From assembly GCA_038215615.1 (NCBI GenBank), contig JBBQQR010000003.1, forward strand, positions 81,350 through 145,349: DNA of 64,000 bases, in the 5' to 3' direction. Below the pieces are notes generated by a model. That model saw nothing but the letters and a program-made list of their open reading frames with translations. It had not been told where the DNA came from and did not search any database. This document shows, in pieces, positions 41,893 through 45,196 of the stretch. Source of the stretch: Vulcanimicrobiales bacterium (GTDB taxonomy: Bacteria > Vulcanimicrobiota > Vulcanimicrobiia > Vulcanimicrobiales > Vulcanimicrobiaceae). Made by a program: the position numbers and the translations under genes. Positions within the stretch are counted from its first letter, which is position 1. Each line of letters begins with the position of its first letter.

Positions 41893-43092
41893 CTACTCGC
41901 TCAGCCGCTCGCGTTTGAACTCCTCGAGCTTGCGGATAAGGTCTTCGTCGATGGCGGGCAGCGCCTCGCTCTCCTCGGCCTCGCCGCCCTCCTCGGCCGC
42001 AGGCGCGGCTTGCCGCTCGGCCCGCTCGGCCAAATACCGTTCGCGCGCTTCGGCGGCCTCGGTTTCGCTCGTGATATCCAAACGCCAGCCCGTCATCTGC
42101 GCCGCCAGCCGCACGTTTTGGCCTTCCTTGCCGATGGCCAGCGAAAGTTGGTAATCGGGCACAATGACGAGCGCGACGCCGTCGTCTTCGAAGAGCTCGA
42201 CGGTCAAGACTTTCGCCGGAGCGAGCGCGTTCATGATCAAATTCGTTTGATCCGGATCCCACTTGATGACATCGATTTTCTCGCCGCGCAGTTCGTCGGA
42301 GACGTTTGCAATGCGGCTGGATTTGGGCCCCAAACAAGCGCCGATCGGATCGACTTCGGCACGGGCGCTGCGCACCGCGACTTTCGTGCGGCTGCCGGGT
42401 TCGCGCGCGATCGCCATAATTTCGACCGTGCCGTCCTCAACTTCAGGGACATTGAACTCCAGCAAACGCTGCACCAGCCCGTCGGCAGAGCGCGACAAGA
42501 TGACGCTCGGGCCTTTGGGAGATTTGCGCACATCCAACACGTAGGCGCGAATGAAGTCGTTGATCCGGAAATTTTCCTGCGGCACTTGCTCCGAGAGCGG
42601 CAGCATCGCTTCGTCCTTGCCGTCGAGCAGTATGTACATGTTGCGCTGTTCGAAGCGCTGAACCGTGCCGGTGACGATGTCGTTGAGTTTCGCAGCGTAC
42701 TTGTTGTAAACAGTGTCGCGTTCGGCTTCGCGGATGCGCTGAACGATGACTTGCTTGGCGGTCTGTGCGGCGATACGCCCAAAGTCTTTGGGTGTAACTT
42801 CTTCGTCGAAGTAATCGCCGGCCTGATACTGCGGCCCCGCCTCTTTGGGCGTAATTTCCAGCTTCGGATCGGTGATTTCTTCTGCCACGATCCGGCGGTG
42901 AAAGACTTTGTATTCGCCGGTTTGCCGGTCGACCGAGACGATCGCATTCGCTTCGCTTCCAAAGTGCCGTTTGTAGGCGGTCAAGAGCGCGGCTTCCAGC
43001 GCTTCGATCAACATCTCGAACGGAATGTTCCGCTCCCGCGAGATGTATTGCAGAACGTCTATCAGTTTTTCTTCGGTCATTTGTTCAGGCAT
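41893..43092 (-). CDS. nusA: transcription factor NusA
   Basis: FGRIAAQTAKQ, AREPGSRTKVAV, AIGKEGQNVRLA. Confidence 0.97.
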   Translation of the reverse strand: MPEQMTEEKLIDVLQYISRERNIPFEMLIEALEAALLTAYKRHFGSEANAIVSVDRQTGEYKVFHRRIVAEEITDPKLEITPKEAGPQYQAGDYFDEEVTPKDFGRIAAQTAKQVIVQRIREAERDTVYNKYAAKLNDIVTGTVQRFEQRNMYILLDGKDEAMLPLSEQVPQENFRINDFIRAYVLDVRKSPKGPSVILSRSADGLVQRLLEFNVPEVEDGTVEIMAIAREPGSRTKVAVRSARAEVDPIGACLGPKSSRIANVSDELRGEKIDVIKWDPDQTNLIMNALAPAKVLTVELFEDDGVALVIVPDYQLSLAIGKEGQNVRLAAQMTGWRLDITSETEAAEARERYLAERAERQAAPAAEEGGEAEESEALPAIDEDLIRKLEEFKRERLSE

Positions 43093-43591
43093 GTTGTTGT
43101 CTCTTCTGTTCCTTTGCACGCTTTAAGTCTGCGCGCACGTCGTATTCTAAGTTTGCGTTCTTTATCGTCTCGATCGGCAGCGGCAACTCGCCGCTTTCCG
43201 TTTGCAGAATCACCGCGGTGCCGCGAACCCCTTGCAAGACGCCGCGATGGGTTTTCGTTCCGCGTACGAGCAGCGACGTGACGATCTTCGCATCGCGGCC
43301 TGCAAAACGCGTGTAGTCTCCAGGCTTCGTCAGCGGCCGGTTCAAGCCGGCGGACTCCACCTCGAGTTGGTAGGCTTCTTCGAAATCCCCAAGCCGTTTG
43401 TTTATCGCAGATGCGATGCGCTCGCACGAGCGAACGTCGACGCCGCCTTCGCGATCGATCGTCACGCTCAGCACGCTCTTGTTTCCGGTACCGCGCGCGC
43501 TGTACTGTACGATCTCGACGCCGGCAAAACGATCGTCGCGCGCAATCTCCTGGACCGCGTGCTCGAATTCGCCTGCCAACGACCTTGCCAC
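43085..43591 (-). CDS. rimP: ribosome maturation factor RimP
   Basis: IDREGGV...CE, YQLEVESAGLNRPL; GTG start at 43591 after GGGGG. Confidence 0.93.
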   Translation of the reverse strand: MARSLAGEFEHAVQEIARDDRFAGVEIVQYSARGTGNKSVLSVTIDREGGVDVRSCERIASAINKRLGDFEEAYQLEVESAGLNRPLTKPGDYTRFAGRDAKIVTSLLVRGTKTHRGVLQGVRGTAVILQTESGELPLPIETIKNANLEYDVRADLKRAKEQKRQQHA

Positions 43592-43613: not shown

Positions 43614-43658
43614 AGCGCGGGACCTGCCCACGCTATTGACCTACCACGGACTAGCATA
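43614..43658 (-). promoter_or_regulatory. rimP -10 box (TATGCT) and leader hairpin
   Basis: AGCGTGGG-CAGGT-CCCGCGCT followed by TCGTTGTT; resembles the GTGGG/CCCAC-type hairpin commonly seen ahead of rimP. Confidence 0.6.
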
Positions 43659-43662
43659 CCTG

Positions 43663-43706
43663 AAAAATGCGACGGGCCGCAACCCCAGGTGGGGCGGGCC
43701 CCTCGC
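43663..43706 (-). terminator. intrinsic terminator
   Basis: GCGAGGGGCCCGCCCCACCTGGGGTTGCGGCCCGTCGCATTTTT. Confidence 0.65.
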
Positions 43707-43878
43707 TCTTACCTACTTTGTGTCGGTTTACGCGTTACGAGCACGCTCTTCTTCCGGTCTACGTCCGGATGCCGCTGGGCGCTCGTCTGGCGCTCCTTAA
43801 ATCGGGCGTGCTCCGCGGGCTCTACTGCCCGGTGGATCTTGCGGTTCCAACCGCCCTCCTTACTTTGTCTCTGTGACA
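43663..43878 (-). ncRNA. candidate ~215-nt structured small RNA of unknown family
   Basis: Bounded by a near-consensus sigma70 promoter and a terminator; several hairpins plus an 8-bp long-range stem GAGCACGC/GCGTGCTC. Confidence 0.55.
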
Positions 43879-43883
43879 CCTCA

Positions 43884-43912
43884 ATTGTACGCCGACAAAT
43901 GTCGGGTTTCAA
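43884..43912 (-). promoter_or_regulatory. sigma70-type promoter TTGAAA-N17-TACAAT with palindrome CCGACA-N2-TGTCGG in the spacer
   Basis: -35 at 43912-43907, -10 at 43889-43884, palindrome at 43892-43905. Confidence 0.72.
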
Positions 43913-43939: not shown

Positions 43940-45196
43940 CTAGGGAGGCGAGGGCGTGGACGGCGTGTAGGGCACCAGATTGCCGCTGCACGGGAACGTC
44001 TGGTCGGGCTCGACGATCCATGGGTCCTTGCCGGCGATCGGCTGGCGGATCACCCAGCCCGTGCACATCTGAACGCCGGCGACTCGCTTCACCGACGTGA
44101 CGTACATTTTTATGCCGCGTTCCTCGGGTGTCGCGCCCAGCGGCCAAAGTTTCCACCGCTGGCTCGCAACATTTTCCGTGTAAATGAATTTCGTTATCGC
44201 TGCGATGGCAGGCGGCGGCGTCGGCTCCGCCGGCTTGATGTGGCTGATGTCACCCTTATACATACGCGGCGTCGCGATCGCGTACGGTCCCGGCGTCGGT
44301 AAGATATTCCGGAGACGCTGATTGAGATTGCGCGACGTTTTGGATGCCGGCTTCCCTTGCGCGGCCGCCGGATGCGGTGTCGACTCGACTGTTTGTATCG
44401 GTTTCGCGACCGAGCTGGATTTGACGGGGGCGATGCCCTTGGGTCCGGGCGAGCCCAAGGTCTTTGGACCCGGACTCGCGGCGCCGCCGCGCGAGATCGT
44501 TGGCTGCGGCAAGCGCGTGGGGCCCGGACTCGGCACGCCCGGCGTGGGTTTGCGAATCTGCACTTGCGACGTCATGCCGGGCGTCACGACCGCTTGCGGC
44601 GTGGCCTGCGCGATCAGCGGAGCAAATGTCGCTTGCGGGGCCTTCGGCTGCTCGATCTTCGGAACGGGCCGCGCGGTTGGCGCGGCCGTCGGGGCTTGTG
44701 TCGGCGGAGCGGTGGGCGGCGCATGAATCGTAGCGGCCACGATGCGCGCGGGCACGCTCGTTGGGACAGCTGCCACAATCGGAAGCGGCGTCAGTGCGAT
44801 TTCGGGTTGCGTGGGCTGCGGGTTGGGCGCAGCCGAGGCTTCCGGCGCGGGCGTCGGATTGGGCGGCGCGGTCGGCGCAAACTTTGAAAGCTCGTGATGA
44901 ACGGGCGGGTGCGGCGGCGCCGAGCGCGGCTGCGCGGCCGCCTGCTGCGGCGCGGTCCGCGCGTGTGGAATCGGCGGAGCAGCGTGCGGCACCGCGACCG
45001 GAACGGTTTTGGGAACAGCTTGGCTCGTCACCGTGACGATCTGCGATCCTTGCACCGACTCCGAGGAGGCCTGCTCGGAGGACGAGGTCGCGATCGAAAA
45101 GAGCAATGCCGCCAAAAGGGCATGCAAAATGAGCGAGGCGACAAAGCTCGTCGTCAAACGCTGCGGATGACGGCGATCGTTGTCGTCGCGCGGCAC
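43940..45196 (-). CDS. TonB/TolA-like membrane-anchored Pro-rich protein with unrecognised C-terminal domain
   Basis: TM segment with SLILH (SxxxH), long Pro/Ala/Thr linker, C-terminal domain with two Cys. Confidence 0.7.
   Translation of the reverse strand: MPRDDNDRRHPQRLTTSFVASLILHALLAALLFSIATSSSEQASSESVQGSQIVTVTSQAVPKTVPVAVPHAAPPIPHARTAPQQAAAQPRSAPPHPPVHHELSKFAPTAPPNPTPAPEASAAPNPQPTQPEIALTPLPIVAAVPTSVPARIVAATIHAPPTAPPTQAPTAAPTARPVPKIEQPKAPQATFAPLIAQATPQAVVTPGMTSQVQIRKPTPGVPSPGPTRLPQPTISRGGAASPGPKTLGSPGPKGIAPVKSSSVAKPIQTVESTPHPAAAQGKPASKTSRNLNQRLRNILPTPGPYAIATPRMYKGDISHIKPAEPTPPPAIAAITKFIYTENVASQRWKLWPLGATPEERGIKMYVTSVKRVAGVQMCTGWVIRQPIAGKDPWIVEPDQTFPCSGNLVPYTPSTPSPP

Follow-up and report, generated by a model that had tools for sequence, protein, structure and literature searches.

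A candidate small RNA gene with a structured Pro-Pro micro-ORF upstream of rimP in Vulcanimicrobiaceae, and a similar module in planctomycetes

The window, a stretch of 64,000 nucleotides from a Vulcanimicrobiales bacterium, belongs to a 2.2-Mb genome (G000). Between a gene for a Pro-rich protein and rimP, it contains a region that can be read on the minus strand as a small gene with its own promoter and terminator. The features of this region and of its surroundings are as follows (positions are those of the window).

43940..45196, minus strand: upstream gene for a Pro-rich protein of 418 aa that belongs to no known family; synteny is confined to copies linked to rimP.
43884..43912, minus strand: sigma-70-type promoter of the RNA, with the -35 box at 43912-43907, a 17-nt spacer and the -10 box at 43889-43884.
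43892..43905, no strand: operator-like palindrome in the promoter spacer, with its core CGAC-N4-GTCG at 43904-43893.
43663..43878, minus strand: predicted transcript of about 215 nt, its ends placed from the promoter and terminator; the unit has homologues in relatives.
43866..43878, minus strand: P0, 5'-terminal hairpin; the sequence is variable, but a hairpin is present in most homologues inspected.
43834..43859, minus strand: P1 hairpin, with a buried Shine-Dalgarno (SD) sequence, the start codon in the loop and a GG/AAGA internal loop; also in planctomycete copies.
43855..43859, minus strand: SD sequence GGAGG, in the 5' strand of P1, near-invariant in copies found by BLAST and by model.
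43797..43850, minus strand: predicted micro-ORF of 17 codons (MEPQDPPGSRARGARPI), from a TTG start at 43850 to a TAA stop, from comparison of homologues.
43827..43841, minus strand: codons for Q-D-P-P-G, to which conservation of the coding part is confined, with the rare CCA as first Pro codon.
43816..43831, minus strand: P2 hairpin within the ORF, 86.6% paired, with both-sided changes in 4 of 5 pairs.
43739..43813, minus strand: 3' domain, a three-way junction, from a covariation count and refolding in models.
43813-43806 with 43746-43739, minus strand: P3 of the 3' domain, which closes the junction.
43793-43779 and 43769-43753, minus strand: P4 and P5 of the 3' domain; the micro-ORF stop codon lies in the P3-P4 linker.
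43663..43706, minus strand: terminator-like hairpin (43706-43669) and T run, from the sequence and homologues.
43653..43682, minus strand: separate rimP promoter, -35 TTGCGG at 43682-43677 and -10 TATGCT at 43658-43653, from comparison.
43614..43634, minus strand: rimP leader hairpin, outside the RNA gene.
43085..43591, minus strand: rimP, the first gene of rimP-nusA-infB; RimP profiles match at E 3e-20, below curated cut-offs, and the GTG start at 43591 is placed from its SD sequence.

The promoter, TTGAAA-N17-TACAAT at 43912-43884, has a score of 10/12 (in 1.6 kb, two such sites occur where 0.3 are expected), and a score of at least 8/12 is reached in 143 of 159 family loci. At the other end of the unit, a finder that has no chance control places a terminator-type hairpin in all 40 of 40 sampled family loci, with a median of -28.4 kcal/mol. 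The spacer palindrome, CCGACA-N2-TGTCGG at 43905-43892, is the sole exact copy within the 2.2-Mb genome, and its core is the only 8/8 site among 138 promoter-like sites of that genome. The core has a fixed position in rimP-linked promoters and is matched at 6/8 or better in 52 of 77 of these, against 2 of 41 other copies. The operator-like palindrome pointed out in a preliminary description of this locus is thus conserved in rimP-linked copies, but not in the others. A dedicated regulator of the palindrome is plausible on this pattern, although shared ancestry may contribute to its conservation. The features support the view that a self-contained, structured and probably regulated small RNA gene lies upstream of rimP. 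Elsewhere in this genome, a promoter-like site near position 1975 of contig C12 (minus strand) contains a spacer box that is distinct from the palindrome of the RNA gene, and which we take to be a LexA box of the Gram-positive type.

By BLAST, the region is present in 27 of 36 genomes of the family, against 0 of 24 genomes of other families. Of 385 genomes in the class, 204 matched a micro-ORF pattern (203 of 347 Vulcanimicrobiaceae and 0 of 37 genomes outside the family; the reversed control gave 0), and a pattern that allowed mismatches had matches in 157 of 234 family genomes. A covariance model, run on 36 family genomes in which neither pattern had a match, gave matches in 24, and 21 of the loci were true copies by eye. 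The module also occurs in planctomycetes, where the ORF takes the form MQDPP plus about four codons. A pattern of an SD sequence followed by MQ(D/N)PP matched 26 of 151 genomes of the planctomycete order (control 1), and 24 of these matches look genuine; a metagenome scan added 85 further planctomycete-type stretches that have no taxonomic assignment, and at least two Planctomycetaceae records with the identical P1 fold are among the matches listed in a collection scan. Other searches gave little. Phages yielded 0, 0 and 12 pattern matches, with the architecture in none by eye; matches in the phylum of G738, labelled Clostridium (9 of 151), and of G737, labelled beta proteobacterium (10 of 151), looked like chance by eye; and so did the 9 of 80 matches in other families of the home phylum, apart from one in-frame match in another family (G1094:C42:24665-24697, minus strand), which has an SD sequence and MQDPP with a long spacer. 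Model matches in families f2 and f3 reached at most 21.5 bits, with seven inspected loci that looked spurious, and a loose pattern over the planctomycete class gave mostly noise. The BLAST, pattern, model and co-occurrence tallies include the unpublished genomes G028, G030, G048, G059, G239, G240, G249, G263, G267, G273, G276, G278, G292, G335 and G348; a few of their loci also entered the alignment, structure and neighbour analyses; later module counts left out recognisable unpublished genomes, and no claim depends on those genomes alone.

The module, about 60 nt in size, is found in tandem at about 25 loci (26 were listed by script, one of them false). The second SD-xDPP module of such loci often ends in PPK, and one locus (L343) has three modules by eye. 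Several genomes have two separate copies on different contigs (G025, G100, G122 and G220, with two matches each, G031 and G288). Three metagenome loci (L293, L339 and L354) carry a different element, intergenic, with an SD sequence, MQDPPG, a 34-codon frame and a strong hairpin, and were excluded from the counts as uncertain.

Genes next to copies of the RNA include rimP, TetR, AmtB, NUDIX and tRNA genes as well as convergent genes. Since the 418-aa gene is syntenic in rimP-linked copies only, we regard it as context rather than as part of the unit; its product has an N-terminal hydrophobic stretch, its nearest Atlas clusters are unnamed and mostly from Vulcanimicrobiota, and TonB-like leads are weak. 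At planctomycete-type loci, heuristic gene calls gave 57 downstream genes, of which 39 are convergent, and clustering sorted 121 neighbours into 89 groups. One gene family, whose single scanned member is an FKBP-type isomerase, is divergently adjacent to 11 planctomycete-type copies (L265, L266, L278, L289, L296, L300, L315, L319, L336, L345 and L351), and at L310 a yebC gene converges on the copy.

These neighbourhoods bear on the proposal, already made in the preliminary description, that the RNA is a long attenuator of the nusA-infB operon, or more generally a cis-acting leader-peptide attenuator of rimP-nusA-infB or of another downstream gene. Such leaders, of the mgtL (Salmonella) or pyrL type, have an SD sequence, a short ORF with Pro codons, downstream structure and a terminator, with ribosome position as the likely input, and Pro-Pro stalls can raise termination by uncoupling (both according to PMC5021804). 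Most family copies do lie directly 5' of rimP (52 of 120 among the matches listed, many of which have flanks too short for a decision), the hairpin ahead of rimP has a bulged stem and a short T run, and a short ORF with putative regulatory codons is present. However, a consistent co-oriented downstream gene is lacking, with planctomycete-type downstream genes unrelated and mostly convergent, and modules occur in tandem. As the preliminary description held, rimP appears to be separately promoted: TTG-N16..18-TAnnnT precedes it in 92 of 112 rimP-linked loci. The rimP -35 box (43677-43682, minus strand) sits within the 3' arm of the RNA terminator; in L021, an insertion separates the terminator from the rimP promoter, and a new TTG hexamer stands at the right distance. 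The micro-ORF stop lies about 90 nt ahead of the terminator, and the models contain no terminator or ribosome-binding-site switch. The window terminator stays at 0.93 under every masked ribosome state; in equilibrium models, 39 of 40 family loci and 28 of 40 planctomycete-type loci keep at least 0.8 in all states, and a spread above 0.3 between states was seen in 0 of 40 and 2 of 40, respectively. We thus consider attenuation of a downstream gene very unlikely.

The structure of the RNA was studied in the window and in its relatives. The 218-nt stretch folds with z = -3.23, and 1 of 200 shuffles folds equally well. The promoter, palindrome, five hairpins, 8-bp stem, terminator and repeats that had been reported from the sequence by eye are all there, although in models of the window sequence an alternative pairing rivals the 8-bp stem and the fourth hairpin, at about 0.4 each. 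The six GGA triplets, two TAAGGAG and two ACAAAGTA are likewise present in the window copy, but their reading as a functional repeat does not survive comparison: ACAAAGTA is doubled in 2 of 159 loci, the GGA count ranges from 2 to 8, and the AGA/GTAGA loops are not conserved. The first TAAGGAG is the SD site, and the second contains the micro-ORF stop codon. Since RNAalifold gave no usable structure on an unguided MAFFT alignment, helices were assigned by hand, and their pairs were then tallied in an alignment fitted to the model (74 rows, one of them spurious). There, 85.8% of cells pair, against 33-42% in slid controls, and 25 of 33 pairs have both-sided changes, counts that lean towards the fitted structure. 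On this count, the helices covary in relatives. P1 has 95-96% of cells paired and 14 both-sided changes at its top pair, and its fold is unchanged in planctomycete-type modules. The 3' domain, on the other hand, is not universal; it differs between lineages and is reduced to a single hairpin in L051 and in planctomycete-type copies, where the stop, mostly TGA, lies at the foot of a GC hairpin that is followed by a linker and the terminator. At the 5' end, the hairpin is often a perfect palindrome of 8-12 nt (L096, L059, L069, L070 and L377-L382), and the loops of such hairpins are self-complementary (UCGA, UGCA and CUAG, and GGCC in L248-L251), which could allow dimers.

Rfam 15, with 6S, Ms1, raiA, T-box, CsrB and the rimP leader among its families, has no match over the module in the window (E up to 10), in 10 homologous loci or in 12 planctomycete-type loci. 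Neither ARAGORN nor a model for tRNA, tmRNA or RNase P matches at the RNA gene, in line with the first impression that it is none of these; tmRNA and RNase P RNA lie elsewhere in G000, the tmRNA (L031, G000:C7:80861-81214) being recognized by the Rfam model (116 bits) and missed by ARAGORN. The supplement alignment rows of the Rhodopirellula-1 motif are unlike the module, and the core string has 0 matches in eight supplement files, one of them partial. No description of the module was found in the literature covered, which included the main texts of PMC5737381, PMC11109978 and PMC8632094; these three contain nothing similar. A 6S- or Ms1-like RNA that binds RNA polymerase, also suggested at the outset, would fit in size, and because G000 has no 6S match, that role is unfilled by known models, with the qualification that the 6S model finds only 5 of 14 control genomes. 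But the absence of an Rfam match even at E up to 10, a shape that is not rod-like, ends that are unpaired in the comparative model and ORF signals that such an RNA would leave unexplained make this possibility extremely remote.

The most strongly conserved part of the RNA has the marks of a translated frame. The alignment of BLAST-found homologues contains a single near-invariant block, consisting of GGAGG, a spacer of 4-5 nt, TTG, ATG or CTG, two codons and Q-D-P-P-G, and a stop follows 15-22 codons on in 27 of 27 of these sequences; in the window, the peptide begins MEPQDPPG. Because the search patterns presuppose the frame, we recounted it on 67 loci (75 modules) found by BLAST, mismatch pattern or covariance model, with a module parser that needed CC-CC; all loci gave a module, one of which is probably false. 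The in-frame start is NTG in 65 modules, near-cognate in 8 and missing in 2, while NTG in the other two frames occurs in 0 of 75. A stop within 20 codons of the Pro-Pro pair is found in frame in 73 of 75 modules, against 29 and 32 in the other frames, and after clustering at 75% identity in 33 of 35, against 12 and 17. Across copies, all four letters occur in the first position of NTG, and one copy (L371) has a whole-codon insertion. In planctomycete-type modules, whose stop codon no search had selected for, 66 of 95 stop exactly four codons past the Pro-Pro pair, and those four codons vary freely. Among 150 matches listed, the third bases of the two Pro codons vary, but their first and second bases are altered in a single case, the second copy in G100; one copy of that genome encodes Ser where the second Pro would stand. 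These counts are subject to ascertainment: most patterns fixed CC-CC, and the planctomycete-type ones also ATG, BLAST and model searches favour the letters of the query, and the genomes are related, so counts are not independent. Even so, the conservation of start, phase and stop indicates a micro-ORF from the TTG at 43850 to the TAA at 43797, and the RNA is probably not purely non-coding. The original reading as a non-coding RNA with repeated protein-binding loops finds no support in this respect. The 56-aa GTG ORF named in the same description is not conserved, and closes 26 codons earlier in three relatives (L002-L004).

A reading without translation can still be formulated, in which the GG/AAGA internal loop of P1 and CC-CC mimic a translation start, the ORF is incidental and the RNA binds protein. 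This is decidedly unlikely in our view, as is its more specific form, in which a repressor, for instance CsrA or some other protein that binds SD sequences, is titrated by the RNA. In its favour, the core and P1 are conserved at the nucleotide level across two phyla, modules occur in tandem, and CsrA is encoded in G000 and in 31 of 34 family genomes. CsrB and RsmZ sponges are stand-alone small RNAs with GGA-containing SD-like sites and repeated modules, and the RNA resembles them in all three respects. However, it has 1-3 modules and frames that are probably translated, and in place of many loop GGA its conserved GGA is base-paired in a stem, with loop GGA not conserved. Moreover, in-frame starts, fixed-phase stops and the whole-codon insertion would have no explanation. 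Nor does presence of the RNA track CsrA: there is no tight co-occurrence with CsrA or EpmA, two near-complete carriers (G031, 99% complete, and G034, 96%) have the RNA without a CsrA match, and 4 of 4 f2 genomes have CsrA without a convincing RNA match. The CsrA sponge of the preliminary description is weakened accordingly, and its Ms1-like alternative failed above on match and shape. In G000, a 63-aa Pro-rich ORF (L401:1665-1856, minus strand) converges on csrA, beside rpsB. We also considered pairing of the core with helix 2 of 23S rRNA, which reaches 11 bp and -14.9 kcal/mol in three family genomes, and rejected it as chance: within these 1.7 kb, 30-67 of 100 shuffled cores find a partner just as good, the site also occurs in a family that lacks the RNA, and in planctomycetes it is weaker (-11.9).

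If the frame is translated, its peptide could be the product that matters, with an N-terminal (xx)QDPP that binds a partner protein and a structure that only limits or stabilises expression. The ORF looks real and has its own promoter and terminator, the invariant Pro-Pro pair could be a binding motif, and FKBP-type isomerases are divergently adjacent in the one cluster of 11 planctomycete-type loci (one representative scanned). Yet across modules the frame ranges from about 6 to 25 codons, the only conserved residues are (Q/E)(D/N)PP(G/D/K/N), and the tail follows the RNA structure. In five loci (L092, L117, L125 and L163, in their first modules, and L314), the stop comes right after PPG and would give products of 6-8 residues. 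Starts are poor: Vulcanimicrobiaceae copies have UUG, CUG, AUA, AUC or ACG, some copies have a near-cognate start only or poor SD spacing (3 or 12-14 nt), and the AUG of planctomycete copies was required by the searches that found them. The SD sequence is buried, rare codons are kept, export and membrane signals are absent, and six peptides tested have no Pfam or NCBIfam match at E 0.01. A functional peptide is therefore distinctly improbable. Type I toxin mRNAs (hok, tisB, ibs) also have a short ORF, an SD sequence hidden in a hairpin, a long structured 3' part and their own promoter and terminator, but they encode a hydrophobic membrane peptide of 18-60 aa, whereas the predicted peptide here is hydrophilic and variable after residue 8, and an unsystematic look saw no antisense partner. 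The cyanobacterial downstream-peptide/yfr6 RNA resembles this one in size (about 250 nt), in its structured 5' part and in its short conserved ORF, and is described in PMC2864571 as having a separate 5' UTR motif that precedes a peptide of 17-100 aa; here, there is no Rfam match, the structure overlaps the SD sequence and ORF, and five residues are kept. Dual-function sRNAs, as presented in PMC12612679, are again small transcripts with structure and a small ORF, but in our RNA a conserved base-pairing seed (in the linker, against the SD sequence) was not found, and the peptide is not conserved as a product.

What is conserved in the coding part is a sequence on which ribosomes are expected to stall. 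DPP, PPG, PPD and PPN are strong stalls, and an upstream Q strengthens them, according to stall strengths that come from E. coli (PMC5811046). Among 184 family modules, 161 have Q at -2, 154 have D at -1 and 157 have G or N at +1; among 95 planctomycete-type modules, the corresponding numbers are 94, 95 and 82. A strong flank on at least one side of the Pro-Pro pair is present in 183 of 184 and 95 of 95 modules, respectively, while all three flank classes come together in only 8 of 1327 isolated Pro-Pro pairs in long ORFs of G000. The conserved (Q)(D)PP(G/D/K/N) would thus rank among the strongest EF-P-dependent stall contexts. By its Q-D-P-P-G/D/N the motif joins the strongest flanking classes of XPPX motifs (PMC5811046), but these lie inside proteins and are selected against, whereas here the motif is the whole conserved product of the gene. 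In 134 of 184 modules, moreover, the first Pro is encoded by CCA, a codon which accounts for 8.4% genome-wide and has been linked to stronger pausing (PMC8129111). It is found in 34 of 35 clustered lineages, and CAA and GAT also dominate the core; part of the conservation may for this reason reflect a binding site at the RNA level rather than coding. An efp gene is present. The two lineages have no EF-P modification system in common (EpmA is above the cut-off in 6 of 8 planctomycete carriers and in 0 of 52 Vulcanimicrobiia). Planctomycetes hold transferred EF-P types, and context, initiation rate and position modify stalling (PMC11388002).

The helix that follows is placed as if to meet a ribosome paused at this motif. 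Measured from the first base of the second Pro codon, a GC helix starts about 13-20 nt further on, a distance that corresponds roughly to the leading edge of a ribosome with this codon in the P site. Counted from the same base, in samples of 42 and 43 modules, the unfolding cost of planctomycete-type modules peaks at +17 to +20 (3.4-3.6 versus about 0.7 kcal/mol per 2 nt), and Vulcanimicrobiaceae modules have a weaker peak at +13 to +18 (1.4-2.0 versus 0.7-1.1 kcal/mol per 2 nt). In the window copy, P3 starts at +20 with a modelled probability of only about 0.4. Pausing on a nascent chain of 5-7 residues may be weaker.

The main rival to the explanation that we prefer accepts the same translated pause and treats the RNA as a sensor, in which the folding or the decay of the 3' domain would depend on where the ribosome stands. 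This we regard as rather unlikely, and the same can be said of its possible outputs, namely that the 3' domain captures or lets go of a protein, which may be the regulator of the spacer palindrome, or gives rise to a stable 3' fragment. The 3' domain covaries, and 98 rimP-linked copies were modelled in a free, a paused and a terminating state. Pairing between the ORF strand and the strand that follows P5 is seen in 73 of the free and 57 of the paused models; in 68 of the 98 terminating models, the strand that follows P5 instead finds a partner downstream of the stop, and 37 copies obey a strict switch rule. However, these models lack a shuffled control, and strands rich in GC find new partners with ease; the 3' domain varies by lineage down to the single hairpin of L051 and planctomycete-type copies, and an anti-SD seed in the linker shows no enrichment (33 of 88, against 33.7 in shuffled sequences).

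Comparison of the copies gives a unit with its own promoter and terminator, an SD sequence and in-frame start in P1, no fixed downstream gene and 1-3 modules per transcript. The shared core consists of a landing site, a micro-ORF with a Pro-Pro stall and a helix just ahead, which makes it probable that the RNA catches and holds ribosomes and does not serve to encode a protein or to regulate an adjacent gene. Our preferred explanation, in which we place slightly less than even confidence, is that a ribosome pause is the working part of this stand-alone small RNA, which would serve as a trans-acting decoy or buffer of ribosomes and EF-P. In this mechanism, a 30S subunit would open P1 and initiate slowly at the weak start. 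The ribosome would then synthesise fMet-(xx)-Gln-Asp-Pro-Pro and wait for EF-P, with the helix at the mRNA entrance as a second brake, before release, unwinding and termination. The least certain step is the purpose, which would be to hold ribosomes and draw EF-P off other mRNAs, so that the synthesis of Pro-Pro-rich proteins is tuned or ribosomes are stored. We chose this purpose because the 3' domain is replaceable or reduced between lineages while the module repeats, as in sponge RNAs. A buried SD sequence and a weak start should load few ribosomes, which sets a limit on the decoy. We propose, more tentatively, that the RNA is a natural decoy for ribosomes and EF-P whose gene product is the stalled ribosome itself, with tandem modules to scale the dose and control by its own operator. 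With similar reserve, EF-P would be titrated, or 70S ribosomes parked, in trans, in a manner common to Vulcanimicrobiota and Planctomycetota. Translation, a pause that depends on EF-P and action in trans are all predicted here from sequence comparison.

The claim to novelty lies in the anatomy of the RNA and in its failure to fit known classes, and its function is a proposal built on these. Known pauses in short ORFs regulate, in cis, the gene that follows, and known sponge RNAs are protein binders that are not translated; this RNA, of which an SD sequence, a start, a maximal EF-P stall motif and a roadblock helix are all that is kept, fits neither description. It is present almost throughout one large soil family and turns up again in a distant phylum. 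If the action that we suggest is true, it would represent a new kind of translation regulation, in which the availability of EF-P or the supply of ribosomes is set by an RNA, and stalling at Pro-Pro could be the function of a gene and not only a cost.
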